DNA from: Candidatus Nomurabacteria bacterium
Lineage (GTDB): Bacteria > Patescibacteriota > Minisyncoccia > Phycocordibacterales > SBAW01
Direction: 5' to 3'
Assembly (NCBI GenBank): GCA_943356415.1
Contig: CALREW010000002.1
Location: forward strand, 128,325 to 192,324
DNA: 64,000 bases
In this document: piece after piece, positions 10,090-63,016 of the stretch
How the letters are laid out: every line of letters starts with the position of its first letter
How positions within the stretch are numbered: position 1 is the stretch's first letter
Made by a program: the position numbers and the translations under genes
The notes under the pieces: model-generated
Database searches by the model: none
Told to the model about the DNA's origin: nothing
The model's input: the letters and a program-made list of their open reading frames with translations, nothing else

Positions 10090-10208
10090 TGGAAGGTGAA
10101 CAAGCGACCTCCTTTGTTTGTATAAACCTTTGAGAAGCTCGGGTCAACCTGGGGAAAAATCTAGGGACTCTGCTATAGTGCCCGGCGGAACCATTCGGGA
10201 GAGAATCG

Positions 10209-11261
10209 ATGCTCTATGAAAAAGTCCTCCGTCCTGGCCTTTGGAGCGTTTCAGCAAACGACGCTGAGATCGCACATCGGCTTACTATCCGTAGTCTCGC
10301 CGCGCTTGAGCACGTGCCTGGTGCACTCGAACTCATCCGCTCTACGCAAAAGATCGGTGAGCAGGAGCCCGTCACACTCTGCGGCATCACCTTTCCAAAC
10401 CGCCTCGGACTTGCCGCGGGTTGCGACAAGCATGCGGAAGCGCTGCTCGCGCTCTTCGCGCTCGGGTTCGGCCACATCGAGGTGGGAACCATCCTTCCCC
10501 GACCGCAGGAAGGCAACCCGCGTCCGCGCCTGTTTCGTTTGCCGGAGGATCACTCCGTCATAAACCGGATGGGCTTCAATAGTCACGGTGCAGACACTGT
10601 GGCCAAGCGACTCGCGCGGTACCGCCGACTCGGCCCCATGCCGGGACCTGTCGGCCTTTCGCTCGGGAAGATGAAGACGACCGACAACGCCGTCGCTTCG
10701 GTCGACTTCATCGATGTGCTCCGCACTCTGGTTCTCTACGGGGACTACCTGGTGGGGAACGTCAGCTCGCCGAACACGCCTGAACTGCGCGAGCTCCAAG
10801 GCAAAGCGTACCTGACTGCGCTCGTTCGGAGCATCGTCGAGGCGGACCGTGAATGCCGCGCCAGGTTGAAGCTGGCTCCTCGTCCGCTTTTCGTGAAAAT
10901 CGCCCCAGACAACATGAGTCGATTCGCGCTCGAGCAAACGCTCGAAGCCATCGTCGAAGGCGGCGGCTCGGGCGTCATCGTGTGCAACACCACGACGGAG
11001 CGTCCTGAGAGCCTTGTTCACCCACTCAAGAACGAAGCCGGTGGACTGAGCGGCCCTCGCCTCTTCTCCACCATGCTCGCGTTGGTGAGAAAGGTGCGTG
11101 AGCTCCATCCGGAGATGCCGATCATCGCGGTCGGCGGCATCTCGAGTCGCCTCGACGCCGTCAAAGCGCTGCGAGCGGGCGCGGACCTCGTACAAATCTA
11201 TACTGGGCTTGTGTTCCAAGGACCCAAGCTCATCCGAGACATCCTCCAAACGCCCCTCTAA
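10209..11261 (+). CDS. pyrD: dihydroorotate dehydrogenase (quinone), class 2
   Basis: 350 aa with NRLGLAAG, GFGHIEVGT, NRMGFNSHG, NVSSPNTP and the C-terminal GGISS...GADLVQIYTG motifs. GC-rich with G/C-ending codons. Confidence 0.85.
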   Translation: MLYEKVLRPGLWSVSANDAEIAHRLTIRSLAALEHVPGALELIRSTQKIGEQEPVTLCGITFPNRLGLAAGCDKHAEALLALFALGFGHIEVGTILPRPQEGNPRPRLFRLPEDHSVINRMGFNSHGADTVAKRLARYRRLGPMPGPVGLSLGKMKTTDNAVASVDFIDVLRTLVLYGDYLVGNVSSPNTPELRELQGKAYLTALVRSIVEADRECRARLKLAPRPLFVKIAPDNMSRFALEQTLEAIVEGGGSGVIVCNTTTERPESLVHPLKNEAGGLSGPRLFSTMLALVRKVRELHPEMPIIAVGGISSRLDAVKALRAGADLVQIYTGLVFQGPKLIRDILQTPL

Positions 11262-11284
11262 GGTGTGCGGAGAGAAAGAAACCC

Positions 11285-11320
11285 CGTCCGGGCGCTCACG
11301 CGCCCGGCGGTTTCTTTTTT
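11285..11320 (+). terminator. GC-rich intrinsic terminator after pyrD
   Basis: Hairpin ccgtccgggcgc-tcac-gcgcccggcgg followed by tttctttttt. Confidence 0.7.
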
Positions 11321-11392
11321 ATTGACCATAGACTAAAGTGCATTTCGGATGCATGCGTCGAAGGGACGCCTGCGCAACGGAGGAAAAAAGTC

Positions 11393-12523
11393 ATGCCCCT
11401 TGTCACTACTGCGGACGATGGGTCCGTGAAAAGCGTCAAGCTGCCTCGTCCATCAAATCCACACGGACATGTCCGCGATGGAGCGCTGCGTGAAGCGGTC
11501 ACGCCCTGGGTGTTGGCGAACACCAAGCACCTGATCGTCATGCCGAATGTCGATCCGCCGCTGAAGACCGTGGAAGCCTCACTCACCTACCTCGGAGAGG
11601 TCGAGCGCATCCGGGACCGGCTCGGACTCGGAACCAATGTGCTCGGCACGCTCTACAATCACGACGGCATCACGCCGAAGATGATCGAGCAGATGGCTGC
11701 GACCAAGCGGATCGTCTCCGTCAAGTGCTACCCCGCCAAGGCGGGCATGACCACTGGCAGCGGTCAGGGCATCCCGCTCGAGCAGACGTCTGACGACGTG
11801 CTGCGGGCTGCCATCGACAACAACATCGTCTACCAGGTGCACGGCGAAGTGGACACCATGAAGGATGGCACACCGCTTGAACCCGCGATGCGGGAGCGGT
11901 ACTACATGACTGATGTGCTTCCGTATGTCCGCGATGCGCATCCCGATCTGCGTATCTCGGTCGAACACGGCACCACCGTCCAAGCGGTGCGTTTGGTCGA
12001 CGGAGATCCGAGCGGCAAGACCGTGATGACCATCACGCCGCAACATCTCCTGTTCGTCGACGACGACTTCATGCAGCCGTGGGGCAACGACCTCAAGTGC
12101 ATGCCCATCCTCAAGTGGCCGACCGACCGGGCTGCACTCATCAAGGCGGCGACGTCAGGCGACCGTCGTTTCTTCGCCGGGACGGACACCGCGCCGCACC
12201 CGTCGAGGAAGAAGCGGGGGGATTTCCAGCTCGCCGCCAACGGCTGCTGGCTTCCCCACTGGATCTCGCTCTACACCCAGGCGTTCCACGCCGCGGGCAA
12301 GCTCGACTCCGTGTTCGACGACTTCATGTCCTACAGCTTCGCCGACTGGATGGGTCTGCCCAGGCCAGAGCCCGATGACACGGTTCTCGTCACGTGCGAC
12401 ACCGCACATGACATACCGGCACCGATCAACATCGAGGGGGAGGACGACGTCGTCATTCCCCTCGGTTGGACCGAGACCGGCAATCGCCTGCGCGTCGGCT
12501 TCTCGGTTCGTGCCGACTTCTGA
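11393..12523 (+). CDS. pyrC: dihydroorotase, class II (E. coli PyrC type)
   Basis: N-terminal PSNPHGHVRDG...VMPNVDPP aligns with E. coli PyrC PDDWHLHLRDG...VMPNLAPP. Also has the KCYPA lysine region, VHGEV, and FFAGTDTAPH. Confidence 0.85.
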   Translation: MPLVTTADDGSVKSVKLPRPSNPHGHVRDGALREAVTPWVLANTKHLIVMPNVDPPLKTVEASLTYLGEVERIRDRLGLGTNVLGTLYNHDGITPKMIEQMAATKRIVSVKCYPAKAGMTTGSGQGIPLEQTSDDVLRAAIDNNIVYQVHGEVDTMKDGTPLEPAMRERYYMTDVLPYVRDAHPDLRISVEHGTTVQAVRLVDGDPSGKTVMTITPQHLLFVDDDFMQPWGNDLKCMPILKWPTDRAALIKAATSGDRRFFAGTDTAPHPSRKKRGDFQLAANGCWLPHWISLYTQAFHAAGKLDSVFDDFMSYSFADWMGLPRPEPDDTVLVTCDTAHDIPAPINIEGEDDVVIPLGWTETGNRLRVGFSVRADF

Positions 12524-12546
12524 ACCTTGCGACTCCGGTCGCAACG

Positions 12547-12580
12547 GAAACGCCGCCCTCGGGCGGCGTTCTCTGTTGTG
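12547..12580 (+). terminator. intrinsic terminator after pyrC
   Basis: Hairpin cgccgccc-tcg-ggcggcg followed by ttctctgtt. Confidence 0.55.
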
Positions 12581-12650
12581 TTGTTGCATCGAAGAAGATG
12601 CATGGTACCGTTTATTTTGGCACCGCTTTCTCCGTGCCAGGGAGAGAATA

Positions 12651-12932
12651 ATGAACCCTCGCAAAACGACGACCATCGCCGATCAGGAGCCTATGGCCTT
12701 CTGGGTGGTCTACCTCATCTTTGGCCTCGCTATTTGGCCTCTCACGACGCTGGCGCCCATCATCCCCAACTGGCTTGTCGCCACTGGTCTCCTGACCATG
12801 GCGGTATGTGCCATGGGCCTCATCGGCAAAAGCGGCATGGTCCTGCTCGTGGGCTTCTGCTGCTACCTCGGGATGTCGGTGATGGCCGCCATCCTCGCCG
12901 TGAGCGAGGCGATGCCGAAGTCCATCGGCTGA
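12651..12932 (+). CDS. small high-GC membrane protein (93 aa)
   Basis: RBS ggagag 7 nt upstream of the ATG. Three hydrophobic helices. Same high-GC codon style as pyrC and pyrD. Confidence 0.4.
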   Translation: MNPRKTTTIADQEPMAFWVVYLIFGLAIWPLTTLAPIIPNWLVATGLLTMAVCAMGLIGKSGMVLLVGFCCYLGMSVMAAILAVSEAMPKSIG

Positions 12933-12947
12933 CGGTGCAAGTGGCCA

Positions 12948-12986
12948 TAGGAAAGGGCCGCCTCCGGGCGGCCCTTTCTCCTGTCT
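12948..12986. terminator. bidirectional GC-rich terminator between the pyr cassette and ftsH
   Basis: Hairpin aagggccgcc-tccg-ggcggccctt followed by tctcct. Confidence 0.55.
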
Positions 12987-13002
12987 GAATCTTACAGATG
13001 CG

Positions 13003-15561: not shown

Positions 15562-15940
15562 GGGGGTGCAAGGCCTAGACAATAGAGACCTCTCACTTGC
15601 TGTGCGAGATAGAAGCCCGGATCTTCTTAAAAAGCCGGAAAACATGACTGCAAAGTCGACTCAATCGCCGTATTTCTCGGCGAATGACTTCGCGTTCGCT
15701 TACGCTCGCGCGTAACTGAACCGGACATCGATACCGCTAAGCCCGAGTGCGGATATTCGGTGGTATATATCGGGCTTATAACGCGAGAGTCGCTCCGACT
15801 TGCGTTAGACATTAAGGAGATCGGTCAGAAACGATCTTGTCCGTTCCCCACGTTGCTGACTTAAAACACAGAATGGAATACATCTCGTAGACTCACTCGT
15901 GAATCTCCTTTGCACGCGGGTTCAACTCCCGCCACCTCCA
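15562..15940 (+). ncRNA. ssrA: tmRNA (ssrA), standard one-piece
   Basis: 5' acceptor strand gggggtg pairs with 3' cacctcc, including the G3-U wobble used by AlaRS. The T-arm gcgggttcaactcccgc is almost identical to the E. coli tmRNA 3' end. A candidate tag ORF GCG AAT GAC TTC GCG TTC GCT TAC GCT CGC GCG TAA (ANDFAFAYARA) lies at 15680-15715. Located beside smpB. A terminator hairpin follows. Confidence 0.75.
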
Positions 15941-15953
15941 CATGTACAAAAAT

Positions 15954-18046: not shown

Positions 18047-18237
18047 ACATGAGGGTTATGAATATACGAGTAATTCTAGCTTGCAAAACACCCCATCAAA
18101 CCAACGTTGTGGATAATGAATTTTCTGTTGACACGCTCTCCACTCGGGACTACCCTGGCGAAGGATTTGGAGTGTAGTACGTGCTCCAAAAGAATTTCGT
18201 ACCGACAATCGTCAATGAGGACCGGAAAGGGGACTCG

Positions 18238-19140
18238 ATGAGCACTCATAGACATCGAACCGGCGGCACGAGCGTGCCTCCTACCAAACCGCGCGGCCAA
18301 CAGATGGGCCCCGGAGGCCGCTACTGGCAGTGGAGCGAGAAGCAGCGCGACAGCGAACTCGACCAACTCCCCGTTGCGCTGAGGAAGCGTCTCGAGGAAA
18401 TCATCGGGCACATCGCGGACGCGCTCGCCCAACCGAAGGCCATCTACCCACAGATGGACAGCTACCGCGCCAAGAGCCAGCACCAGGCCGGCATCTTCGT
18501 CACCGCGGGTGAGAATCATCGCAGGGCGGCACAGCACAAGGTTGAGATCGCATTCGGGACCAAAGGCCAATACGGCTTGGGGCCTCGCGTGATGCTCACC
18601 ATCTGGGGGCTGAACGCGAGTGCGCTCAATAGCCTCTTCGCTAAGACCGGCGGCGACCTCAACAAGCTCGCGAAGCAGGTCGTCGAAAAGTGCAACCTGT
18701 CAGTGCCGATCGAATCGGTGTCTGCCCCCGCGGCCGCACCCATTCACCTCAACGGCCACAGCGCCGAGCGTCGGGACGAAGGCGTCTCACTTGCCGCTGC
18801 GGGTCCGTCGGTCGTACTCGAAACTTCCACGTCGAGTCCGCCCACCTGCCACAACGGCCAGGCGGCGATTGAGCTGCGACCTGACGGGCAATCGTCAGCG
18901 AAGCAAGAAGCGGTCATCCGCATCATCGCCACCGGTCACGGCATTTTCAATGGCCGGGACTTCGGGCGCGACGAGTTGGCGTTCGAGCTCGAAGACGCCT
19001 GCCCGCCAATCAATAACGCTAAGGCGCTCATCGACCAGATGATCGCGTGGGGCCACCTCGCTTCGGACGGCGCTCGACTCCACATCACACCTCAGGGCTA
19101 CGATTTCTGCTTCGGCGGACCATCGATCGCCTCCAATTAA
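18238..19140 (+). CDS. hypothetical protein, high-GC cassette
   Basis: RBS aaagggga before the ATG at 18238. About 300 aa with no recognisable motif. GC-rich codon usage distinct from the flanking genes. Confidence 0.4.
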   Translation: MSTHRHRTGGTSVPPTKPRGQQMGPGGRYWQWSEKQRDSELDQLPVALRKRLEEIIGHIADALAQPKAIYPQMDSYRAKSQHQAGIFVTAGENHRRAAQHKVEIAFGTKGQYGLGPRVMLTIWGLNASALNSLFAKTGGDLNKLAKQVVEKCNLSVPIESVSAPAAAPIHLNGHSAERRDEGVSLAAAGPSVVLETSTSSPPTCHNGQAAIELRPDGQSSAKQEAVIRIIATGHGIFNGRDFGRDELAFELEDACPPINNAKALIDQMIAWGHLASDGARLHITPQGYDFCFGGPSIASN

Positions 19141-19142
19141 TG

Positions 19143-19196
19143 CGCCTTCGGGCGCGAGCGGTACGCCCCGGCTTCGGCCGGGGCGTATTGTTTTAA
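19143..19196 (+). terminator. GC-rich tandem hairpin terminator
   Basis: Hairpins gcgcc-ttcg-ggcgc and cgccccggc-ttcg-gccggggcg followed by tattgtttt. Confidence 0.65.
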
Positions 19197-19290
19197 AAAA
19201 TCACTTCCTTGACCGCTCAGCAGCGTCGTGACAGATTGGCTCTGGAACCGCGTCTATCAACCAAGCGGTTGCACGAGAGGGAGTGAACCT

Positions 19291-19626
19291 TTGACCCAAT
19301 CGATTGAACCCTGCCCCATCACGGGGTATCGCTGGAAATCAGGCAATACGTGCCCGCCGAAGAGCACTCGCCTGCTCGCGCTCTTCTACGCACAAGCGCG
19401 CGGCACTACCATCACCGAGGACGGCGCCGCCAAGCTCATCTTCGACAACTGTCGCGACATGCGCGTGTCGGTGGAGCACGAACTGGCAACGCTGCACCAC
19501 CACGGATGCCTCGTTCACGGGGAAAAGCTCGACGGCAAGCAGACCTACCAGGTCGGCGACAAGAAAAACGCGTGGGTCTTGCTCGAGCCCTACCTCGACA
19601 AGATTGGCGAACCCGCGCTCGCCTGA
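19291..19626 (+). CDS. hypothetical Cys/His-containing small protein, high-GC cassette
   Basis: RBS gagggag, a 7-nt spacer, then an in-frame TTG at 19291. The ORF track gives a GTG start at 19228. Contains CPITGYRWKSGNTCPP and HHHGCLVH. Confidence 0.35.
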   Translation: MTQSIEPCPITGYRWKSGNTCPPKSTRLLALFYAQARGTTITEDGAAKLIFDNCRDMRVSVEHELATLHHHGCLVHGEKLDGKQTYQVGDKKNAWVLLEPYLDKIGEPALA

Positions 19627-19748
19627 ACACCGATCTCCATCGATTCCACTCATCACCCATTTGGAGGGAGAACTGCCCCGGCGCATCGCCGGGGTTTCTC
19701 GTTGAAAGAGACTCTCCCCCCTGCTATACTCCCCCTACGTAAAGGCCC

Positions 19749-23349: not shown

Positions 23350-23664
23350 AGAAGCAAGTATAACAATCAGATACCTAGAAACGAGAAACCTCCGTCGTCG
23401 GTTTCCCGTGCGGAGGTCTGCTCGATGGGATCCAAGAAGTATCGTCCTGGTATATACCAGGTGGGTGCCCGCAGCGGACGCGAATGCTGTTGCAGTCGTG
23501 CCGCGATATGAGGCTCCCTGACGATAATCAAGGACGCAACTTCCTGAATCCTGCACAAAGTATAACAAAGGTCATATTTCGCACCTGTGCATAGCGCATT
23601 AGAACACATCGCCTTAAAAAGAGTCGGCCCCGCCTTACGGCGGGACCGGTGCTCTGACGCGCCC

Positions 23665-23937
23665 TTAGTGGGCGGTCCTCAGTCGGCGCAGCGGCCGAGC
23701 GAAGACCGTGTACCCGTTCGGGCTACGCATGGGAGCGAGCTCCCATTTCTCCCCCGGCTGCGGAAGAAGCCCTTCATCCTCTTCGACGACGATCTTGAAG
23801 CGATCGCCGCCGTAGCGGAAGTGAGCCCACAGCTCCCGCTTGTGGTCGTAGACCTGCTCGCGCAGGCAGACCTGGAAGCGGCTGGGGAAGTCGGCGGGGA
23901 GCCGATGGTAGTAGTAGACGTTCTTGGCGTTCGCCAT
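23665..23937 (-). CDS. hypothetical 90-aa protein, high-GC cassette
   Basis: Begins MANAKNVYYYHRL with RBS aggaagg. A GC-rich terminator ggtcccgcc-gtaa-ggcggggcc plus T-run lies downstream on the minus strand. Strong G/C codon bias. Confidence 0.4.
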   Translation of the reverse strand: MANAKNVYYYHRLPADFPSRFQVCLREQVYDHKRELWAHFRYGGDRFKIVVEEDEGLLPQPGEKWELAPMRSPNGYTVFARPLRRLRTAH

Positions 23938-24135
23938 GATGGCGTTCCTTCCTGAAATAGAGTGCTGCCGCACCCTATCAGGTCAGAACACCATTGTTCA
24001 AAAACCTTAGAGTGCAGCTGTCAAAGACAAGCTACGCTCTACGTACTAGAACCAGCGACATGGGCGCCTCCATAAGTGGTGTACAGACGCGAATATTTAA
24101 CTAAGTTTATTAAAAATGTCAAGACCCGTCAGACC

Positions 24136-30106: not shown

Positions 30107-31201
30107 TTACTTGATGGACGCCTGCGCGTCCTGGAGAAGGCTGACCCACATCGCGACCAGCTCCTTGCCACCTTCCTTGTGGCGACGGCCGGCCATCAAC
30201 GTGGAGTGGAAGTCAGGCGTGCGCTCGTAGAGCGCCTCCTGCTTCTCCTTCATGACGCGGTAGAGCCTGGACCGCTCCTGGTCCTCGGGGGAGTTGTAGG
30301 CAGCATGTCCTTGCTGCACCCGGCTCCACCAAGCATCATGGGCTTGGGTGTAGTCGGCGTACCGTTCCTGCACGTCAGGATCGTAGAAGCGCTCGAAAGC
30401 GCGCTTGACCCCATCGAGCCGTTCGGCACGGTAGCCTTGCTCCTCCTTGGGAAGTTCGCGGAACGCTGCGAGTGCAGCAGCCTTTCGCTTGTTGTAGAAG
30501 GCTTCGAGCCGCTGCGGATCGCGCAGATGCTTGCGGGCCTTCTCCATCATCGCCTTGCGGATGCTGTCGATCAGCGCCCCCGACGTATCGGGGATGCCGC
30601 GCTCGGCGTATGCCGTGTTCGGGGCGCCATCGCTTTCATGGCTATAGTAGAGCGCCCACCAGCAGCGGTTGCCGGTGTAGGGCTCCCCGAAGACGGGTCG
30701 GCAGAAGTTACGCTCCAGCAGGACCGCCTTGGCGCCGTAGACGCCGGCGTGCTGGTGCTTGACCGTCTTGGCAACGGTCTCGTCCGTCACCATGATCTCG
30801 AAACCCATGGCTTCGACGCGTTCGAGCGCCGTTTCCATGGCATTCCAGATCCTCCAATCGGCGATAGCCTTGCCGATAGGGCCTTGAAAGATCACCGCTC
30901 CGAGAGCGATGACGATCGCGCACAGGGCCGCGATCACACCCATCCACAACTTCCTCATTTTCCGTTTTCCTTGCTCCTTGATGCCGCGAGGAGCGGCATC
31001 GACAGCTACGGGAGAGCCGTTGCGGTCTCCGATGATGAAATCCACGCTGAGGCCACCCGCAAGGGTGACCCCATCCACAACAGAAGCCACGAGGAGCTTC
31101 TTGTTGAAGTGAGGATTCTTCTCTTCGGTTACCTTAACGACCCAGGTCATGACACCGCGGAAGGGATCCTTCCCGACCACGTGTCCCTTAGTGCGCTCCA
31201 T
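30107..31201 (-). CDS. hypothetical membrane protein, high-GC cassette (364 aa)
   Basis: GC-rich coding with an internal TM helix WMGVIAALCAIVIALGAVIF. Own promoter and structured leader upstream. No recognisable catalytic motif. Confidence 0.45.
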   Translation of the reverse strand: MERTKGHVVGKDPFRGVMTWVVKVTEEKNPHFNKKLLVASVVDGVTLAGGLSVDFIIGDRNGSPVAVDAAPRGIKEQGKRKMRKLWMGVIAALCAIVIALGAVIFQGPIGKAIADWRIWNAMETALERVEAMGFEIMVTDETVAKTVKHQHAGVYGAKAVLLERNFCRPVFGEPYTGNRCWWALYYSHESDGAPNTAYAERGIPDTSGALIDSIRKAMMEKARKHLRDPQRLEAFYNKRKAAALAAFRELPKEEQGYRAERLDGVKRAFERFYDPDVQERYADYTQAHDAWWSRVQQGHAAYNSPEDQERSRLYRVMKEKQEALYERTPDFHSTLMAGRRHKEGGKELVAMWVSLLQDAQASIK

Positions 31202-35649: not shown

Positions 35650-36051
35650 ATGAGCCACCGCCTCGCAATCTTTCTGTCCGCGCTCCTGTTTGGGGCGCTC
35701 GCGCTTATGGCGCCTGCAGCCGCTCAAATGGTGCCTGCGCCGACCGATATATCGGGAAAGCTGGACCGCCTTGAGCTCAACCCGGGAGAGGTGTCCCCAT
35801 GCGGTCCCTACTTCCTACCAACCGACCCGGGCTACGTCACCTTCAAGCTGGAGAACCGGCCGAACGGGGACCGCATGCTGGCGCTCGTCTTCATCATGCA
35901 GGTCCGGAATGTCCGTCTCGTGATCGATAACACGAAGGACGTGCCCTTCTTCTCAGCTCGGATGAACGCAGCTCGGCTCGAGTTGGTCCAGATCCGGCTC
36001 TCACAAGCAGCGCACGATCGGGCGCTATCATGCTTCTCTGAGAAAAGTTGA
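35650..36051 (+). CDS. hypothetical secreted protein (signal peptide), high-GC cassette inside the spc operon
   Basis: RBS ggagag 7 nt before the ATG. Signal peptide MSHRLAIFLSALLFGALALMAPAAAQ. GC-rich codons. On the opposite strand to rpsZ and rplE. Confidence 0.45.
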   Translation: MSHRLAIFLSALLFGALALMAPAAAQMVPAPTDISGKLDRLELNPGEVSPCGPYFLPTDPGYVTFKLENRPNGDRMLALVFIMQVRNVRLVIDNTKDVPFFSARMNAARLELVQIRLSQAAHDRALSCFSEKS

Positions 36052-39256: not shown

Positions 39257-39604
39257 TTATTTCTTCGGTGCAGCAGCAGCTTCAGGTTTTGCAGCCTTGG
39301 CAGCAGCAATCTCAGACTCCTTCTTTTTGATCTCGAGCTCTTTCTGCATCTTTCCTCCGTGACGAACGAACTTCTTTGTAGGAGAGAATTCACCGAGGCG
39401 ATGACCCACCATATCTTCGGTAACCAACACTTCGATATGAGTCTTGCCGTTGTGTACGCCAAACTTGAAACCAACCATCTCAGGAGAAATCTGACTGCGG
39501 CGGTACCACGTGTTTATAACCCCAGTGGTCTGAGGCTTTTTACCCTCAATTTTCTTGAGGAGTTTTGGTTCAACGAAGGGTCCTTTAGTGAGTGAGCGTG
39601 CCAT
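39257..39604 (-). CDS. rpsS: 30S ribosomal protein S19 (C-terminal Ala/Lys-rich extension)
   Basis: [18 protein letters not shown]...[18 protein letters not shown]. Confidence 0.9.
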
Positions 39605-39687
39605 TGTTTTTTCTGTTTGCCCGAGCAGGTTTCGGTTTTTGTTTTGCTCTACGTGATCGAAGCTTTGAGCCCCAATCTCGTCGGCTT

Positions 39688-39715
39688 AAACAAAAACCCG
39701 CCCAAGCGGGAATGG
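39688..39715 (-). terminator. intrinsic terminator between the IS element and rpsS
   Basis: The minus strand reads cccgc-ttgg-gcggg followed by tttttgttt. Confidence 0.5.
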
Positions 39716-39758
39716 ACAGATACTACCTACCCCTCTCCCCAATTGCAAGGCTTTTCCA

Positions 39759-39798
39759 GATCAAAATGTTCGAGGCCCGGGCCTCGAACATTTTGATC
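39759..39798. repeat. 40-nt perfect palindrome (left end hairpin)
   Basis: The sequence gatcaaaatgttcgaggccc|gggcctcgaacattttgatc is exactly self-complementary. Confidence 0.9.
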
Positions 39799-39806
39799 GT
39801 CATTCA

Positions 39807-40490
39807 TCATAGTTCAACTGAACTGGTTGGAATCTTGTCCTCAAGTGTCTTGGCTGTACTACTGTTCACAAAATCCAAGTAATTACTCTGCTTAGTGCCA
39901 TCGAACTGACTAATGAGGATATCGCTAGAAAGGAGACTCCCCCACCGATTTTCTTCCACCATGTCTTGGAAAGAAGAATACGGATACGCAAGCTCGTAAC
40001 CTTTCCACTTTGCGAGCTCTCTCGGGTTGCGATGAATATAAGCCGAAAGATATAAGAGCTGGTCATTGTCCTGCACGTGCACATTCTTGTATCTGCTTTC
40101 AAAAAGGTGCCCCGCGGCTTTGTACTTTGTATTGAAATACATGGCATATCCCGTTGAAAGTCGTTGCATATAGGCGCTGATACCTCCTTCGGTAGTCTCT
40201 TTAAGCAAAAGGTGGAAATGATTGGGCATGATGCAAAATGCTACAAGCTCAATCAATTTATTTTTTTCGATGCTCTCCAATTGGCTCTTCGGTATCCGAA
40301 AACCCTCTTCGAGAGCTGCCGATTTCAAGTACCGACGGATATTCGGCAAAGCAACATCCGATTGGCAGTGGAGGATCAAAAAAAGGAAACGGAGCCAATC
40401 GTGCTCATCCTTAAAGAGATTCGCTTTATGCGCCCCGCGATTGAACACATGGTAATACTCTCCAAAAGAAATTTCTCGAGCTACCGTCAT
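39807..40490 (-). CDS. tnpA: IS200/IS605-like Y1 (HuH) transposase TnpA / REP-associated tyrosine transposase
   Basis: HuH motif MPNHFHLLL, catalytic Tyr region GHLFESRYKNVHV, and N-terminal YHVFNRGAHKANLF. Confidence 0.75.
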   Translation of the reverse strand: MTVAREISFGEYYHVFNRGAHKANLFKDEHDWLRFLFLILHCQSDVALPNIRRYLKSAALEEGFRIPKSQLESIEKNKLIELVAFCIMPNHFHLLLKETTEGGISAYMQRLSTGYAMYFNTKYKAAGHLFESRYKNVHVQDNDQLLYLSAYIHRNPRELAKWKGYELAYPYSSFQDMVEENRWGSLLSSDILISQFDGTKQSNYLDFVNSSTAKTLEDKIPTSSVEL

Positions 40491-40508
40491 TCAACCGAGT
40501 TTAACATG

Positions 40509-40536
40509 TTTGTTCGAGGCCCGGGCCTCGAACAAA
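40509..40536. repeat. 28-nt perfect palindrome (right end hairpin)
   Basis: The sequence tttgttcgaggccc|gggcctcgaacaaa has the same core as the left-end palindrome. Confidence 0.9.
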
Positions 40537-40583
40537 AACTTCTTTGGCAAATGCTTATGAATATTTAAGAGCAAAAAGCCGAA

Positions 40584-40612
40584 CGGGGCGCCAGATGGCG
40601 CCCCGTGGGGGT
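40584..40612 (-). terminator. GC-rich terminator after purE
   Basis: The minus strand reads ggggcgcc-atct-ggcgcccc followed by gttcggctttttgctc. Confidence 0.65.
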
Positions 40613-40661
40613 GGAGGATGGTTGGAGTTTCGTGAAGTCGAACGTCGCTTGTCGGGCGAGG

Positions 40662-41273
40662 TTACTTCTTCTTGCCGGCGGCCTTCTTGGCCTTCGGCAT
40701 GACGAACTTCGGCGGCGCGACCGGCACATTGTCGCTCTGGTGGGTGACGTAGCGATGCAGCGCATCGCGGACGTTCGGCCTGTAGAGACCGACCATCGAG
40801 GCAGCCAGCAGTGCCGCGTTAGCGGCGGCACCCATGCCAACCGTTGCGACGGGCACGCCGGGCGGCATCTGGACGATGGAGAGCAATGCATCCATCCCAT
40901 CGAGACCCGTCTTCGGCGGATTGCCGATGATGGGAACCCCGATGACCGGGATGCTCGGCGCGTGGGCCTTCATCATGCCGGGCAGATGTGCGGCACCGCC
41001 GGCACCAGCGATGATGATGCGGTTGCTGATGTTGGCCCGGTGTGCGAGGAACTCCACGCGGCGTGGGGTCCGATGCGCCGACGTGATGAACGTCTGATAG
41101 GTGACGCTGAGTTCGACGAGGACGCGGACGCAGTCCCACATGCCACCTGCGATGCCCTCACGCCAGTCGCTGATGGAGCCCATCGCGACGAGGACGTCGA
41201 CCTTCTTCAGTTCCTTCGCCCGCTTGACGAAGTCCGTCCACGTTTTCGGCTCATCTGGCATAAAGTCAGCCAT
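40662..41273 (-). CDS. purE: N5-carboxyaminoimidazole ribonucleotide mutase (PurE), high-GC cassette inside the S10 operon
   Basis: VLVAMGSISDW, SAHRTP and IAGAGGAAHLPGMMKAHAPSIPVIGVPI are PurE signatures. Strong G/C-ending codon bias. Lies between rplB and rpsS, which are normally adjacent. Confidence 0.85.
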   Translation of the reverse strand: MADFMPDEPKTWTDFVKRAKELKKVDVLVAMGSISDWREGIAGGMWDCVRVLVELSVTYQTFITSAHRTPRRVEFLAHRANISNRIIIAGAGGAAHLPGMMKAHAPSIPVIGVPIIGNPPKTGLDGMDALLSIVQMPPGVPVATVGMGAAANAALLAASMVGLYRPNVRDALHRYVTHQSDNVPVAPPKFVMPKAKKAAGKKK

Positions 41274-41419
41274 GGCCTTTTACCTTTCCGCCCGAATGGG
41301 CTTATCTCAATGGTTGTACGCGCGGGGCAAATGCCCTACCGGAAGTCACTCTACTCAATAGCGTCTCGGGCGCAACAACAAACCACCCGCCATTCGGCGG
41401 GTGGTTTGTTTTGATTTCG

Positions 41420-42271
41420 TTAGTCTGCTTTGCGCTTCTTGCCGACGCGACGGCGAGAAACGATGAGGCGATTGGAGTATTTCTTCGGCGTGCGAGTCTT
41501 TTGACCCTTACCTGCAGGGCGTCCCCACATGGTGACAAGGCGGCGACGTCCGCGACCTTGGCGTCCTTCACCACCGCCGTATGGGTGGTCAACTGGGTTC
41601 ATGGCAGTACCTCGAACGGTCGGACGGATACCTTTCCAGCGACTGCGTCCTGCTTTACCGAAGTTAACAAGGTGATGTTCAGGATTTGAAACTTCGCCGA
41701 TAGTGGCAAAGCACGTCTCGAGAACTTTGCGCACTTCAGTCGACGGCATCTTGAGGTCAACATAGCCTCCGTCGCGAGCGATAACTTCGATGTGGGTACC
41801 TGCGGAGCGACCAAGTTTGCCACCGTTGCCTGGCTTTATCTCGACGTTGTATACGAAAGTACCAACGGGAACATTCTTGAGCGGCATTGCATTGCCTGGT
41901 ACTGGCTTTGCGTCAGGACCACAAACAATCTCTGCGCCGGCCTTTACTGACTGAGGAAGAAGGCGGTAGCGACGAGAACCATCCTTGTAGACAACGACAC
42001 CAACGAAACCTGAGCGGTTTGGATCGTATTCAATAGTCTCAACACGACCAGGGACACCCACTTTATCGTAATGAGAAGTAACCTCACGGAAGAGACGCTT
42101 GGCACCGCCTCCTTTGTGACGCACGGTTATGCGGCCGACATTGTTACGACCAACACCACGCTTAAACCCAGAGGTGAGTGGCTTGTACGGATCGGTCGTG
42201 GTCAACTCCTTGCGGAAGTTGATGCCAGTCATGCCGCGGCGTGATTTTGTGTATGGCTTATACGTTTTCAT
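41420..42271 (-). CDS. rplB: 50S ribosomal protein L2
   Basis: GRNNVGRITVRHKGGG...HPYGGGEGR. Confidence 0.95.
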   Translation of the reverse strand: MKTYKPYTKSRRGMTGINFRKELTTTDPYKPLTSGFKRGVGRNNVGRITVRHKGGGAKRLFREVTSHYDKVGVPGRVETIEYDPNRSGFVGVVVYKDGSRRYRLLPQSVKAGAEIVCGPDAKPVPGNAMPLKNVPVGTFVYNVEIKPGNGGKLGRSAGTHIEVIARDGGYVDLKMPSTEVRKVLETCFATIGEVSNPEHHLVNFGKAGRSRWKGIRPTVRGTAMNPVDHPYGGGEGRQGRGRRRLVTMWGRPAGKGQKTRTPKKYSNRLIVSRRRVGKKRKAD

Positions 42272-45842: not shown

Positions 45843-46088
45843 ATGTATTTGGTCCTGTGTCTAGATGTGCGGGATGCTGGAACCTCAGGAGTGCGCGAGA
45901 ACGCTTTCTCTTGAGGGCTCGGCAACCCGTGCCTGATAAATGTGCTCCGGACGCTCAACTGAGCGCACCGGAACATGAAAACCACACGCAATATGCGTTA
46001 CGCACAAAGGTAACAGAGGGAGCCATAAGAATCAACCCTTAACGCATCGCGGGCCGCCCAAAAGTGAGGGCGGCCCGTCGTTGAACGG

Positions 46089-46679
46089 TCATGCCACGCC
46101 GGCAACTGCGGCGAGTCCAAGCTCAATGAACTGGCTATCCGGCTGCCGCCCGCTTCGAGCGGCATACAGGAGCGCCAAGATCATGTCAGCCATGCCGATG
46201 AACTGAGCCAGACGTTGCATGCACGCATCATCATCTGGCAGCGGCATCACCGCGAAGGTCCACTCAAGAAAACTCCCTGCCGGGGTCTCCTTGATAGAAA
46301 ACCCGCAGTGATACCCATCGAGCTTGCTGAAGTAGTCCGCGAGGCCGTCTCGCCAAGTCGCGAGATGTACGAGCTGTGGCCTGTCGAATGGGCACGCTTC
46401 GAATTTGAATTCCTTGCTGAGCCAGCCGTCTTCATCACTCCACGAACAATGGAGATAATGTGCGACATGCTTCGGGAAGTGGATTGACGGCACGCACAAG
46501 CGCGCCATATCCTCTTTCCGCTCAACAAGAGTATTCCTATCGAAGCGCTTCTGAAGAAGCCAGGTAAAAAGGTCGAGCGGTGTCGTCACGGCGATATCCC
46601 CCGCAAATTGTTGAGTCTCCTTCTCAATTGAACCACTTCTTCGCAAAACGAAAAGACCCCTCTCGGGGCCGTTTCGCAC
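46089..46679 (-). CDS. hypothetical protein, elevated-GC insertion between fusA and tuf
   Basis: 196-aa ORF with a GTG start 15 nt after the fusA stop. The true start is uncertain. No known motifs. GC is visibly above neighbouring genes. Confidence 0.35.
   Translation of the reverse strand: MRNGPERGLFVLRRSGSIEKETQQFAGDIAVTTPLDLFTWLLQKRFDRNTLVERKEDMARLCVPSIHFPKHVAHYLHCSWSDEDGWLSKEFKFEACPFDRPQLVHLATWRDGLADYFSKLDGYHCGFSIKETPAGSFLEWTFAVMPLPDDDACMQRLAQFIGMADMILALLYAARSGRQPDSQFIELGLAAVAGVA
46640..46672 (-). terminator. intrinsic terminator after fusA
   Basis: The minus strand reads ggcccc-gaga-ggggtc followed by ttttcgttttgcg. Confidence 0.6.
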
Positions 46680-49004: not shown

Positions 49005-50510
49005 TCAGCACATCCTGCCGATGTCACAGTCGACGAACGTGTCGATGACCAAGTGAGGTTCGTGCGCACACCTCATGCTGCGGCGTTTTCCGTGAGAGAG
49101 GTTCACGCGCACTACCCTACAGCCAAGCTCGTGCGCGTAGAGAAGCTCGTGTTCAGGGTTGTCCCCGACCACGATCATATGTTCCGGCGGGAGACCAGAT
49201 TCATCGAGGAGGCGTTTGAGCCTCTCGCGCTTGTCTGCTCCCTTCTCGACGATATGAACGCTGTCGAACATATCGTTGATACCGAGAACCTCCAGCTTGC
49301 GCTCTTGGTACCCGATCTCACCTGCAGAAAGGAGGACCCTGCGGTGCCCGGCGTGCGAGAGTGCGCCGAGGAATTGCCGAGCGCCCGGTACCAATGTCAG
49401 AAACTCGATACGTCCGACATCGCCTTGGAGATCCTTGGTGGTGTTAGCCAACGTATCGTCGAGATCCACAACGAATATACGGGGTTCCACAGGCAGGCCT
49501 GGCTCCATGAGACCCATAACCGCGTGCGCGAGCCTGGTGCCGTCATGGTGGATGAGCCCTTGTTGTAGCGCTCGCTCGCTCACGAAGTCGCCCGTGACGA
49601 TGCGGTGTGTCGAACCCTTGAAGAGCAGTTCCTTTTCTCCAGCGTGGAGGATCACCGGTTCGGCTTTCTCCTCACGGAAGTATTTGTCGAGCATCGCCTT
49701 CGGGATGCGGCCTTCGTTGACGAGAATGGCATCGAACTTCTTGCGCCCGACCCCATACCGAAGCAGCGGCAGTTCCACGAAGTCCTTGGCTGAGAACCCG
49801 CGCGTTTCTGCATACTTCGTCATCAGGTTGACGATGTAGATCAGCTGGCCGGCAGATGCACTGATGGCGTCCGCGAGGCCGTCAACTAGTAGCAACGGTA
49901 TGATCGACGTGTAGAGGTCGCCCGGTCCGAGAACGATGACATCCGCTTCGCGAATAGCCTTGTCAGCCTCCGCGCAGATGTACGCGCTGCGATCTAGACG
50001 TACCCGAAGCACGTAGCGATCATCCTTGAGGCTGCGGGTGTCGATCAAACCCTCGCCCATCATTTCACTGCCATCGCTGAGTTCAGCAATGAGATGGCAG
50101 TCGTTGGTCGATATCGGATAGATGGAGGCCCTGCAGCCACACACCTTCGCGACAGCTTGCGACGCTTGACTGCGTCCGTACAGCTGCTCGCTCGCGGCGA
50201 GAATCAGATTGCCGAGGCTCCGATCCTTGAGCGGCGAACCTTGCCCCTCGGGGAAGCGATACGCCATGAAAGGCGCCATGGGGTTGGTGGTGTCCATGGT
50301 GGCAAGGATGAGCCGTCGAGCATCGCCCGGAGGCAACACTCCTTGTTCGGTCCTCAAATTGCCTGAATCGCCGCCGCTATCACCGATGTTGACGATGTGC
50401 GTCCGTTCACCGATGGCGAGGTCGCCAAAGCCGCGAGCGACATTGAACCCACCGGTGCCACCGGTGAGGGTAACAACGCGAAGATTGCGCCGAGCACGAA
50501 GTGGGCTCAT
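49005..50510 (-). CDS. YvcK/CofD-family (gluconeogenesis factor-like) domain fused to a C-terminal HAD-like hydrolase, high-GC cassette
   Basis: N-terminal VTLTGGTGGFNVARG and HIVNIGDSGGDSG match the UPF0052/CofD fold. The C-terminal part has FVVDLDDTLANT and VVGDNPEHELLYAHELG, which match HAD motifs I and III/IV. RBS aggaaagg. Start set at MSPLRARRN. Confidence 0.55.
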   Translation of the reverse strand: MSPLRARRNLRVVTLTGGTGGFNVARGFGDLAIGERTHIVNIGDSGGDSGNLRTEQGVLPPGDARRLILATMDTTNPMAPFMAYRFPEGQGSPLKDRSLGNLILAASEQLYGRSQASQAVAKVCGCRASIYPISTNDCHLIAELSDGSEMMGEGLIDTRSLKDDRYVLRVRLDRSAYICAEADKAIREADVIVLGPGDLYTSIIPLLLVDGLADAISASAGQLIYIVNLMTKYAETRGFSAKDFVELPLLRYGVGRKKFDAILVNEGRIPKAMLDKYFREEKAEPVILHAGEKELLFKGSTHRIVTGDFVSERALQQGLIHHDGTRLAHAVMGLMEPGLPVEPRIFVVDLDDTLANTTKDLQGDVGRIEFLTLVPGARQFLGALSHAGHRRVLLSAGEIGYQERKLEVLGINDMFDSVHIVEKGADKRERLKRLLDESGLPPEHMIVVGDNPEHELLYAHELGCRVVRVNLSHGKRRSMRCAHEPHLVIDTFVDCDIGRMC

Positions 50511-50596
50511 GGTCGTACCTTTCCTGTTGATGATGCGGTATTGAAGTAAGAGCTCCGAGGGCAAGCCTACCTGAGCAGACTTCTGCCTTCCAGTTC

Positions 50597-50628
50597 CAAA
50601 CGATAGAACCATCCTCACGTGAGGATGG
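50597..50628. repeat. 32-nt perfect palindrome centred on CACGTG
   Basis: The sequence atagaaccatcctcac|gtgaggatggttctat. A second imperfect palindrome, ggtaattttgcg-ag-cgcaaaattacc, overlaps the rpsG stop at 50655-50680. Confidence 0.8.
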
Positions 50629-50677
50629 TTCTATCGAAACCCTTCAACAACCTCAGGGTAATTTTGCGAGCGCAAAA

Positions 50678-54294: not shown

Positions 54295-55293
54295 TCACTT
54301 CGACATCCTGTGGAAGTCGAAGAAATCGAAACCATGCCGGACGACCCTGTCGACTAACGAATAGGAGCCGTCGCGCATGAACTCCTCGGTGAGGATGTAA
54401 TCGGGAATGACCCCATGAGCCTCCCGCAAAGTTGGCCATTTACCGTTGCCGACGATCACCTCACCCACCGTCACGCTCACCTCGACATGACGCTCTGGCG
54501 GGAAATAGGCCATCTGGTAGGCCGACTTCCCGAACGTCTGACGGCCCATGATACGTACACCGATGGGATTGGCTTGCCTCGCGTATGCAGCAAGCATCTC
54601 ACCGGCAGATGCCGTGCGCCCATCAACGAGGATGAGCGTCTGACGTCCGTGCAGCATGCCGCGAGCTTGTGCGTAGTACGGTTGGGAGTCTCGCGCCGTC
54701 CGATCAGTCATCACCAAGGCTCCACGGCCTGGCGCAAAGAGCCCAGCGAGGCCGATCATTTCATCGAACATTCCCCCAGGAGAGCTCCGGAGGTCGAGGA
54801 TGAGCTTGTCGGTTTGCTCCATCGCCGCAAGGACCGAGTACGCCTTTTCGTACGTACCTAGCGTTCCAAAGTGATGGATCGCTAGGTACTGGATGCCGGG
54901 CACGCGATCGTGGATGACGCCTGCTCCAACCTTCAAATTGGAGTGAGCCGATGTGGTCGGCTGGTAATTTGGCTGGCTGGCGTTCAGGGCCTGGAGGAAC
55001 CAGCTCTCGTGCAGCGGAAGAATGCGGCTGTATTGGTCCATGCATCCTTCTTTTTGCAATTGCTCCACCAGCTTGAGGGTACTCTGGCCCGCATTCGCGC
55101 GGCAGTACAGGTCAGCCAATTTTGGCATGCACTCTGTCCTGACCGGATGGAGAGCGATGCGCGCAAATTGCGCAATCAGGTCGTTCTCCCCGCAGTCCCG
55201 AAACAAAGTGTCTTGTGCCAGCGTCCGACCAGGGCACAACATGACGATAACGGCAGCAAGTGCCGCCAAGCAAACGCTCGCGAACCGCTTCAT
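54295..55293 (-). CDS. secreted S41-family peptidase (C-terminal processing protease-like), elevated GC
   Basis: Signal peptide, then LILDLRSSPGGMFDEMIGLAGLF and LVDGRTASAGEMLA...GRQTFGKS, which carry the Ser/Lys dyad context. Confidence 0.65.
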   Translation of the reverse strand: MKRFASVCLAALAAVIVMLCPGRTLAQDTLFRDCGENDLIAQFARIALHPVRTECMPKLADLYCRANAGQSTLKLVEQLQKEGCMDQYSRILPLHESWFLQALNASQPNYQPTTSAHSNLKVGAGVIHDRVPGIQYLAIHHFGTLGTYEKAYSVLAAMEQTDKLILDLRSSPGGMFDEMIGLAGLFAPGRGALVMTDRTARDSQPYYAQARGMLHGRQTLILVDGRTASAGEMLAAYARQANPIGVRIMGRQTFGKSAYQMAYFPPERHVEVSVTVGEVIVGNGKWPTLREAHGVIPDYILTEEFMRDGSYSLVDRVVRHGFDFFDFHRMSK

Positions 55294-61888: not shown

Positions 61889-63016
61889 CTATTCGCCGTC
61901 GCCACCACCGCCACCACCGCCGTCGCCACCACCGCCACCACCGCCGTCGCCACCACCGCCGCCGCCAGCATCGGTATCGACGGTGTCGACTTCCACTGCA
62001 ACGGGGTTAACGCGGTTGTTGCCCACGTCGCCGTCGTTGAGACCGTTGCCCACCTGGGCTTCGGTTTCCTGCTGGCTTTCGGCGAACTGCGTTGCCGGCA
62101 CGTCGTCGGCGCTCGTCACCTCGCCATCGTGGGCGAAGCCTCCGAGCTGATTGCCGTCTTCGCCCATCGAGCCGAGGCTCGGGTCGAAATCGGCCGGCAG
62201 ATCGGCGTCGGCCTGCTGGAGCTCTTCCGGCAAGTCGAGGAGCGACTTGAACGGCTCGTCGAACAGGTTGACGTCGGTATCGACGGCATCCTGCAGCGAC
62301 TGCGTCGTGCCGTCGATACCCATCGCCGCGAAGCGGTCCGCCTCCGAGAAGGCGGGCGCAGCGGCGTTGGCATCGCTGGGACGCAGCAGCATGTAGGCGA
62401 GGCCGAGGCCAGCCGCCGCGGTGAGGCCGGCGACGACCGGATTCACGCGCCCTCCGAGACCGAGGCGACCGAGAAGACCTTGCCGCGGACCGTTGTTGTT
62501 CCGGCCGGCGACATGGACGTTCATGGTCGTTTCCTTCGGGATGCCCATCGTCTGGGCAACCTTCCAGGCATCGATGTTGGCGCCCAGGAAGATGATCACC
62601 CAACCCTGAGCACGGCGTTCGGCGATCTTCTGCTTCACGTCGTCGAGGGTGTACTTCTTGGATGCGTTTTCCAACCCATCGGTGAAGATGACGAGCGTGT
62701 ACTTGACGCCGGCCTCCTCCACACCGTCCGTGAGCGCCGACATGATGGCGTCCAGGAGCGGCGTGAGCGCGCGGGGCTCGTACTCGTCTTCCTTGAGCAG
62801 CTCGATCTCGGAGACCTTGCCGTTACGGAGAACGTCGAAACCCTGGCTGTCCCACTGGACCAGCTTGAAGGCGGCGTCGCGGGCGACCGGGTCGGCCTTG
62901 AGCTTGCCGAGGTAGGCATTGATGCCTTCCACGACGGGGTCCTTCCACTGCGCCATCGAACCGCTGCGATCGACAGTCTTACGGACTTCGTACCTCTGAC
63001 TCGTTTGATCGGCCAT
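61889..63016 (-). CDS. VWA-domain protein with C-terminal Gly/Asp tandem repeat, very high-GC cassette
   Basis: MIDAS-like DRSGSM and FTDGLEN. The C-terminus is DAGGGGGGDGGGGGGGDGGGGGGGDGE, encoded by three tandem 24-nt units. GC looks above 60% with extreme G/C third positions. Confidence 0.55.
   Translation of the reverse strand: MADQTSQRYEVRKTVDRSGSMAQWKDPVVEGINAYLGKLKADPVARDAAFKLVQWDSQGFDVLRNGKVSEIELLKEDEYEPRALTPLLDAIMSALTDGVEEAGVKYTLVIFTDGLENASKKYTLDDVKQKIAERRAQGWVIIFLGANIDAWKVAQTMGIPKETTMNVHVAGRNNNGPRQGLLGRLGLGGRVNPVVAGLTAAAGLGLAYMLLRPSDANAAAPAFSEADRFAAMGIDGTTQSLQDAVDTDVNLFDEPFKSLLDLPEELQQADADLPADFDPSLGSMGEDGNQLGGFAHDGEVTSADDVPATQFAESQQETEAQVGNGLNDGDVGNNRVNPVAVEVDTVDTDAGGGGGGDGGGGGGGDGGGGGGGDGE
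61895..61968. repeat. tandem 24-nt repeat x3 encoding (G7D)n
   Basis: Plus-strand unit gtcgccaccaccgccaccaccgcc, iterated. Confidence 0.8.

Follow-up and report, generated by a model that had tools for sequence, protein, structure and literature searches.

A RAYT-like Y1 gene between matching hairpins, and a compositionally foreign purE-like gene, in the rplB-rpsS gap of a Candidatus Nomurabacteria genome

In a 64-kb stretch of DNA from an ultra-small, uncultivated Candidatus Nomurabacteria bacterium (contig CALREW010000002.1; hereafter the window), the ribosomal-protein genes rplB and rpsS lie 1.8 kb apart, and the interval is occupied by a GC-rich purE-like gene and by a gene for a 227-aa Y1 HUH protein that is bracketed by two perfect palindromes. 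How did a metabolic gene and a transposase-like gene come to reside within a ribosomal cluster, and did their arrival break it? A first interpretation made from the letters alone (the sequence-only reading) proposed that an element of IS200/IS605 or REP/RAYT organisation, accompanied by a captured purE, had split the S10 operon, and took the pair as a hint of hairpin-guided cassette insertion in general. The account that we favour, and hold to be probable with some reserve, is a different one: a resident class-2 TnpA_Y1 enzyme, akin to the tyrosine transposases associated with repetitive extragenic palindromes (REPs; the enzymes being RAYTs), sits with its cognate hairpins beside an independently acquired purE, both of them in a gap between transcription units that was already there. 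The window amounts to roughly 6-10% of a typical genome of the Candidate Phyla Radiation (CPR), and statements about copy number cover the window only.

Pfam searches and coordinates agree with the sequence-only reading as to the gap and its two occupants. The rplB, purE-like, Y1 and rpsS genes are all on the minus strand, and the features of the locus run as follows:

39257-39604, minus strand: rpsS (S19; Pfam Ribosomal_S19, 3.7e-32), first gene of the downstream ribosomal transcription unit
39688-39710 (hairpin 39697-39710), minus strand: rpsS leader hairpin CCCGC-TTGG-GCGGG with T run, directly 3' of the -10
39720-39748, minus strand: rpsS promoter-like element (TTGCAA at 39743-39748, 17-nt spacer, TAGTAT at 39720-39725)
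39759-39798, no strand assigned: 3' palindrome of the Y1 gene, 40 nt and perfect, 8 nt past the Y1 stop codon and 13 nt from the rpsS -35
39807-40490, minus strand: Y1 gene, class-2 TnpA_Y1 (RAYT-like) by sequence, 227 aa (Pfam PF01797, Y1_Tnp)
40509-40536, no strand assigned: 5' palindrome of the Y1 gene, 28 nt and perfect, 18 nt ahead of the Y1 ATG
40573-40606 (hairpin 40583-40606), minus strand: purE intrinsic terminator, a 10-bp GC stem and T run (terminator scan and folding)
40662-41273, minus strand: purE-like gene, divergent class I, 203 aa (Pfam AIRC, 1.4e-43)
41348-41375, minus strand: putative purE promoter-like element, TTGCGC-16-TAGAGT
41377-41410, minus strand: rplB terminator hairpin with a 15-bp stem and T run, 9 nt past the rplB stop codon; left edge of the variable slot
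41420-42271, minus strand: rplB (L2; Pfam Ribosomal_L2_N/C), last gene of the upstream ribosomal transcription unit

The arrangement is a property of the organism. The best named relatives of the window's RplB are Candidatus Adlerbacteria/Paceibacterota, at 76% identity; the same locus occurs, identical, in two further assemblies (L001, L002), and in a related population (L097-L101) it recurs with about 94% of its nucleotides identical, so the order rplB-purE-Y1-rpsS is not an assembly chimera. The Logan contigs L001 and L097 stop within the 40-nt palindrome, where a short-k de Bruijn assembler presumably folded back at a long perfect palindrome. A small difference between the two populations concerns the rplB terminator (folding energy -19.4 kcal/mol, z -8.6): its 15-bp stem is identical in the window (41377-41410) and in L097 (5864-5897), while the 4-nt loop is reverse-complemented (GAAT vs ATTC), which suggests a hairpin flip.

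The identity of the Y1 protein is the first step toward an answer. Its Pfam match to PF01797 (Y1_Tnp) reaches 47.5 bits (cut-off 23; E 2.4e-12), and the gene is full length with its catalytic motifs conserved, an intact gene rather than an inactive fragment. In an alignment of 43 homologues, H93 of the HUH motif (N90-H91-F92-H93) is invariant and H91 at least 90% conserved; the catalytic tyrosine, Y151, is likewise at least 90% conserved and is followed by an invariant I152-H153-R154-N155, giving the motif YIHRNP; the W-motif position reads FQ; and a C-terminal extension with YPxSS is conserved. The signature Y---NP defines class 2 of TnpA_Y1, the TnpA_REP/RAYT side, whereas the IS200/IS605 transposases (subclass 1.1) have Y---Q, measure about 150 aa and are multi-copy (Quentin et al., 2018, PMC6006769). 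A search of solved structures by sequence gave marginal matches (E 0.006-0.016), and a fold search was therefore needed to settle the relationship. The best match in the Protein Data Bank (PDB) to an AlphaFold2 model of the protein (mean predicted local distance difference test score, pLDDT, 90.7) is 4ER8_A, the E. coli TnpA_REP with its REP hairpin (E 2.1e-5; template modelling score, TM, 0.68 on the target), which ranks above the ISDra2 and IS608 transposases; the predicted fold is thus nearest to TnpA_REP.

By its motifs the protein is a class-2 TnpA_Y1 of RAYT-like kind, closest to subclass 2.1, the subclass being judged by motifs only. It has in common with that subclass (Bertels group 1, or TIRYT) the series NH[YF]H ... 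FQ ... Y[IV]HxNP; both carry SS in the proximal tail and are about 230-240 aa long (PMC6006769), a likeness established by motifs and not by joint phylogeny. With RAYT/TnpA_REP enzymes proper (E. coli YafM, PDB 4ER8) it shares the HUH motif with a single catalytic tyrosine in Y---NP, the best fold match, low copy number, and a gene lying between its own cognate hairpins, the arrangement termed a REPtron. The family to which it belongs is large, 865 clusters at 50% identity reaching E <= 1e-30 with the profile, and its named members are Patescibacteria, Paceibacteria or Kaiserbacteria. No phage link is apparent, since a PHROGs search returned no match and viral contigs yielded only two weak ones.

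Matching hairpins on both sides mark this whole family. The two palindromes of the window, whose presence around the Y1 gene the sequence-only reading had correctly described, have 24 nt in common (TGTTCGAGGCCCGGGCCTCGAACA), slightly more than the 22 it had counted. As single strands they fold at -19.5 and -12.6 kcal/mol (z -8.5 and -6.4), and on the sense strand they lack T runs. With up to 3 mismatches tolerated, the 22-mer core still occurs at exactly these two sites of the window (shuffled sequence leads one to expect 0); a scan of a 20-nt core over 185,579 species genomes, among which the source genome was evidently absent, gave a single match, intergenic and unrelated, in a Saccharibacteria metagenome-assembled genome without a nearby Y1 gene. 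The further copies for which the sequence-only reading had proposed a search were not found in the window. A 21-nt direct repeat beside the palindromes is not kept in L004 and was treated as chance.

Across the family we compared the 200-nt upstream flank of each gene with its 200-nt downstream flank, a match being at least 14 identical nt. Among family genes with both flanks available, 39 of 64 (61%) have such a match, as against 9 of 457 control open reading frames (ORFs) of the same loci (2%), and several of those nine resemble additional Y1 paralogues that have their own hairpins. In every case the shared sequence forms a hairpin, locus-specific in sequence and common in design (TGT-N4-AGG-loop-CCT-N4-ACA). 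Within the clade that adjoins rpsS, the perfect palindrome is kept around CCCGGG while its arms change symmetrically (variants beginning GTTCGAGG, GTTGGAGG, GTGCAAGG, GTCAGAGA and GTTAGGAA), and equivalents of the 5' hairpin occupy the same position in relatives. Many distant members carry a third hairpin copy in frame inside the ORF, some 50-70 codons from its start (L082 10156-10178, where it encodes QLGNLVSK; also L017, L027, L064, L066 and L075), and in L037, L063, L086 and L029 hairpin copies lie kilobases away. In-frame REP insertions inside tnpA_REP have been described for subclass 2.4 (PMC6006769), which these distant members resemble in that respect, unlike the window's own Y1 gene, which has no internal copy. 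As far as sequence can tell, the family's hairpins behave like REPs, and the clade of the window displays the gene-flanking copies only. On Y1-bearing contigs we also noted ORFs of about 160-270 aa between their own matched AGG-loop-CCT hairpins (L084 8143-8799, L072 13327-14004, L042 1395-2090 and L050 6526-7338); each of them is probably a divergent Y1 paralogue that has a hairpin family to itself.

Did the insertions break the operon? A promoter-like element precedes rpsS in all lineages examined, composed of a TTGAC/TTGCA hexamer, a 17-nt spacer and a TAG[T/G]AT or TATAGT hexamer, and its position and hexamers are kept in L004, L092, L093, L008, L094, L095, L102, L103, L104 and L079; the window's copy falls under the threshold of a generic promoter scan. 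Within about 10 nt of the -10, 9 of 11 lineages have a GC hairpin of 4-6 bp with a T run, the stem sequences differing. Promoter and leader hairpin are present without a Y1 gene in L102, L103 and L104, and also in L079, where rplB and rpsS adjoin with nothing between them; rplB, for its part, has its own terminator in each lineage, at the same position and, among the relatives, unrelated in sequence. Because promoter, leader and rplB terminator all occur without insertions, the boundary that divides two transcription units at rplB|rpsS is ancestral in this group, and because it exists in relatives lacking Y1, the insertions did not split the operon as the sequence-only reading had it. The same reading had placed an intrinsic terminator ahead of rpsS and concluded that the downstream genes need a new promoter. 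The promoter-like element is indeed present, but the supposed terminator lies downstream of this conserved promoter and is hence a 5' leader element, which from its sequence could be an attenuator or a stabiliser.

The promoter-like element, small GC hairpin and T run (window 39688-39748) constitute, in their own right, a candidate undescribed ribosomal-protein leader or attenuator of Paceibacteria. It has no Rfam match, and an Rfam search of the whole rplB-rpsS gap gave none; leader stems of unequal length were misaligned by MAFFT ahead of RNAalifold.

The position of the Y1 gene beside rpsS is likewise conserved. Genes for Y1 proteins of 55-100% identity to the window's directly adjoin rpsS in 8 of 8 loci, whereas homologues at 31-50% identity lie elsewhere, some of them at other recurrent positions. 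Within the former group the gene is co-directional with rpsS in the window, L097, L092, L004-L007 and L093 and inverted in L008-L011, L094 and L095/L096, so that opposite orientations occur among hosts at 81-82% ribosomal-protein identity (L093 co-directional; L008 and L095 inverted). Whichever way the gene is turned, a flanking hairpin stands 0-13 nt from the rpsS -35, and beside the -35 a motif (A)GGGG is found in Y1-bearing loci only. Between the window and L097, 97.4% of the nucleotides of the Y1 gene agree, a value like those of tuf and rpsJ, and 16 of the 18 substitutions are at third positions, with 1 of 227 residues changed; a single residue change among 18 substitutions indicates purifying selection. 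The gene is thus functional and, over short time scales, inherited vertically; its GC content at third codon positions is host-like (GC3 0.50). RAYTs, too, combine vertical inheritance below the genus level and purifying selection with a deep phylogeny that is incongruent, horizontal transfer being dominant at depth (Bertels et al., 2017, PMC5581495). In our literature coverage, which was incomplete, we found no published description of a Y1 or RAYT gene at rplB|rpsS in CPR bacteria.

The purE-like gene presents a different picture. It is compositionally foreign, with a GC content of 0.64 and a GC3 of 0.82 against 0.49-0.64 for the GC3 of its neighbours, and it has its own terminator, as the sequence-only reading had remarked, as well as a promoter-like element. 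Against TIGR01162 it scores 143.7 bits, slightly below the cut-off of 149.6, with the motifs MGSxSD, SAHRTP and AGGAAHLPG present. It has only two close homologues (92% and 80% identity), the rest being at or below about 50%, and the homologue search identified no donor. In L097 its terminator is identical and its -35 and -10 hexamers are the same, with a diverged spacer. Its 5' untranslated region (window 41274-41345) is, as a separate observation, 100% identical to that of L097 across roughly 75 nt, as against 89% for the coding region; the untranslated region folds no better than shuffled sequences (z 0.5) and has no Rfam match.

Between rplB and the 5' hairpin of Y1, the gap behaves as a slot with changing content. 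It holds purE in the window and L097 (92% protein identity), unrelated ORFans of 182 aa in L004 and 135 aa in L005, large non-ribosomal genes in L092 and L093, and nothing in L095. Y1 occurs without purE in six lineages (L004, L092, L093, L008, L094 and L095). Conversely, the rplB|rpsS gap of L103 (4489-6688; 83% RplB identity) contains three genes and no Y1: purC, an ORFan of 178 aa, and a purE of canonical type with 41% identity to that of the window; each of these genes has its own terminator and promoter-like element, the -10 of the L103 cassettes being of the same TAGAGT type as that of the window's purE. Since each occurs without the other, purE and Y1 are independent tenants, and the linked event imagined in the sequence-only reading, a transposase with its captured purE, falls away. 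Composition and distribution date the two relative to each other: Y1, host-like and more widespread, is the older tenant, and purE, foreign in composition and narrowly distributed, the more recent. The edge of the slot is sharply placed in one instance: with the same Y1 protein in both, L004 and L005 show homology throughout 12.7 kb save for one segment, which extends from the rplB stop codon to the exact outer edge of the 5' palindrome and consists of 688 vs 578 nt with unrelated ORFs. This edge favours, at one point and in one strain pair, a local role for the hairpin; the 80 metagenome loci contained no near-identical pairs for further comparison of slot turnover.

Taken as a sequence of events, the favoured account would run as follows. 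In the host group, Paceibacteria near Adlerbacteria, the ribosomal cluster is already divided at rplB|rpsS into two transcription units, and the gap between them would have served as an intergenic "safe harbour" for two independent tenants. The first would be the long-resident Y1 gene with a hairpin on each side, a minimal REPtron. If it works as E. coli TnpA_REP and the IS608 and ISDra2 TnpA proteins do, the enzyme may bind its hairpin in single-stranded DNA, for example on the lagging-strand template, cut at the hairpin foot through a 5'-phosphotyrosine intermediate and rejoin the strand. Visible footprints of such activity would be the upkeep of matched hairpins, the flips of orientation, the extra hairpin copies of distant members and a turnover that ends at a hairpin; any part of the enzyme in inversion or in the exchange of cargo is likewise conjectured by analogy. 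The second tenant, the foreign purE-like gene, would have come later, as an autonomous unit of promoter, gene and terminator placed between rplB and the 5' hairpin.

Several observations weigh against this account. Over greater distances, Y1 identities are 55-65% regardless of ribosomal-protein identity (r = 0.37, p = 0.18, which with 6 lineages is not significant), and the gene is missing from the gap in the intermediate relatives L102, L103 and L104 (76-83% RplB identity). Strict vertical descent would consequently require several losses, the alternative being repeated insertion or replacement at the same site; the pattern accommodates both vertical descent accompanied by inversions and losses and a recurrent, site-specific insertion or replacement, and does not separate the two. 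The inverted lineages lack a second hairpin. Dispersed copies of the palindrome are absent from the window and from the 10-20 kb loci of the rpsS clade, so the upkeep of a REP or REPIN population, the defining function of a RAYT, is not demonstrated here. In the window the hairpins are perfect palindromes with a foot that reads TGT...ACA, whereas canonical RAYTs have imperfect stems with a foot of GT[AG]G. The window protein has a C-terminal extension of about 75 aa, and it scores 42.3 bits with NCBIfam NF047646 (REP_Tyr_transpos), below the cut-off of 80. Published members of subclass 2.1 are reported to lack REPs, some of them having terminal inverted repeats (PMC6006769), whereas matched hairpins are the rule in the present family; FQ at the W-motif region is a feature of subclasses reported without GTAG REPs (PMC6006769). 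The coincidence of the slot edge with the 5' palindrome may just reflect constraint on the hairpin. The fusA-tuf slot, finally, is also hypervariable and has neither Y1 nor palindrome.

That last slot illustrates a wider point. The ORF between fusA and tuf (window 46084-46679; L097 1-1191) encodes 196 vs 182 aa at 20% identity (E 0.006), homology returns from the stop codon on, and the window and L097 have the terminator beyond it in common; the difference may be that of a hypervariable ORFan allele or a cassette swap. Gene turnover in ribosomal gaps is general and needs no Y1 enzyme, and the only evidence for a local role of Y1 comes from the flips in orientation and from the slot edge that coincides with a hairpin in one strain pair. 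An Adlerbacteria-like relative (L104/L105) provides further examples of accessory genes in such gaps, here toxin-antitoxin genes: PemK between rpsJ and rplC (2741-3139), and an RHH gene with a YafQ-like gene after rplE (9922-10411).

The alternative that survives best, although we judge it unlikely, takes the unit hairpin-Y1-hairpin to be a site-specific "homing" element that is still mobile between genomes and re-inserts either way round upstream of the rpsS promoter, its shared position then reflecting target specificity rather than long residence. In its favour stand the star-like deep divergence of Y1, uncorrelated with that of the hosts; the two orientations among hosts of 81-82% ribosomal-protein identity; the absence of Y1 from L102-L104; the constant presence of a hairpin 0-13 nt from the -35 and the (A)GGGG motif confined to Y1-bearing loci; and the dominance of horizontal transfer in RAYT evolution over long time scales (Bertels et al., 2017, PMC5581495). 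Against it, the close pair formed by the window and L097 exhibits ordinary vertical co-divergence under purifying selection, the composition of Y1 is host-like, and no second copy, pair of empty and filled sites or excision junction was seen. Homologues are nearly lacking in viral contigs (the two weak matches), and the distant family members reside at other positions that are apparently conserved as well.

Rather improbable is an integron-like exchanger, in which Y1 and its 5' hairpin would be a fixed site that swaps single-gene cassettes (purE, the ORFans) by the chemistry of single-stranded hairpins. The edge of the variable segment at the outer edge of the 5' palindrome, in strains with identical Y1 proteins, is what one would look for on this account, as are unrelated cargo genes in one slot and cargo built as autonomous promoter-gene-terminator units. 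The cassettes, however, have no common hairpin or attC-like motif, the far edge is merely the rplB stop codon, Y1-free relatives (L103, L104) and Y1-free slots elsewhere in the operon vary too, and the edge is documented in a single strain pair. True integrons (IntI/attI/attC) likewise place a recombinase gene beside a slot of exchangeable single-gene units and employ folded single-stranded hairpins, but their IntI is a tyrosine recombinase, and they have attC sites on the cassettes and cassette arrays, none of which is found at the locus of the window. A stronger form of the idea would make Y1 and the hairpin by the rpsS promoter a fixed single-stranded recombination site capable of flipping itself and of inserting or replacing single genes, an HUH-based analogue of the integron that is possibly coupled to ribosomal-protein transcription through the hairpin abutting the -35; we regard this, too, as a long shot.

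The proposal that a recent, active insertion sequence of IS200/IS605 type, carrying a captured purE, broke the S10 operon, and that hairpin-guided insertion gave rise to all the high-GC cassettes, is now very improbable. In its favour are the Pfam Y1_Tnp domain, the flanking hairpins, the fact that no target duplication is evident and the abundance of GC-rich islands with a single gene, and the enzymes of IS608 and ISDra2 do share with the window protein the Y1 HUH fold, presumably the recognition of hairpins in single-stranded DNA, and the absence of target-site duplication. Those transposases, however, have Y---Q, a core of about 150 aa, near-identical copies, frequently a tnpB, and distinct imperfect hairpins at their left and right ends (LE/RE), none of which is found here: the window protein has Y---NP and 227 aa with a C-terminal domain, and the window has no tnpB and no second Y1 copy. 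Of the two organisations that the sequence-only reading had offered, the REP/RAYT-like one thus agrees with the data, and the IS200/IS605 one is contradicted by the YIHRNP motif, the missing tnpB, the single copy in 64 kb and a fold nearest to 4ER8. Moreover, the operon boundary and the rpsS promoter occur without Y1, and Y1 and purE occur independently.

The borders of the islands lend the proposal no help either. The window has about nine GC-rich islands (GC 0.58-0.65, GC3 up to 0.81) of one or two genes each, among them those at 10209-12988, 18181-19705, 23587-23973, 30107-31201, 35650-36051, 49005-50618, 54295-55293 and 61889-63016. Their products include a quinone-dependent dihydroorotate dehydrogenase, a CofD+HAD fusion, an S41 peptidase, several ORFans and, between rplE and rpsN, a small secreted protein. 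Most islands finish in a GC-rich terminator, and the first begins just past a tRNA gene (9720-9792). Perfect hairpins number 21 in the window against about 2 expected, but the Y1 palindrome is absent from all other island borders, where the hairpins are unrelated GC-rich terminators. The palindrome recurs neither elsewhere in the window nor at the border of any other island, and a general hairpin-guided mechanism for the cassettes is therefore unsupported.

That the palindromes are just terminators, insulators or operators beside a decaying Y1 relic, or that the GC-rich purE is an assembly chimera, is scarcely credible, for although the palindromes are promoter-proximal and terminator-proximal and Logan contigs break at the longer one, the catalytic motifs are invariant, the gene is under purifying selection, identical hairpin pairs recur family-wide (including in-frame internal copies unexpected of terminators), the palindromes have no sense-strand T runs, and the arrangement was recovered in three assemblies and a diverged relative.

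Widespread and domesticated, the RAYTs are HUH enzymes that have yet to be assigned a role in the cell, and they have been studied almost exclusively in Proteobacteria and Cyanobacteria. The present locus reveals a large, CPR-specific RAYT-like branch whose simplest form keeps just the two hairpins of its own gene, beside an essential promoter. New relative to published RAYTs are the CPR lineage, the perfect palindromes without a GTAG foot, the absence of a visible REP population and the fixed address by the rpsS promoter. So stripped-down an arrangement offers a convenient system in which to ask what a RAYT does without a REP population, and whether hairpin-directed cutting drives local inversion and gene turnover. 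In Paceibacteria, furthermore, the "universal" S10-spc cluster emerges as a chain of separate transcription units whose gaps gather accessory or horizontally acquired genes (purE, purC, toxins, ORFans), a circumstance that bears on assumptions of marker-gene synteny and on metabolic inference in CPR genomes.

Two further features of the window deserve mention. A second zero-loop perfect palindrome, 36 nt long (CGATAGAACCATCCTCACGTGAGGATGGTTCTATCG) and unrelated in sequence to that of Y1, lies at 50601-50636, between rpsG and the GC-rich CofD+HAD gene. A tmRNA gene (15562-15943; Rfam, 90.6 bits), unrelated to the Y1 locus, is situated by a smpB-like gene and other housekeeping genes.

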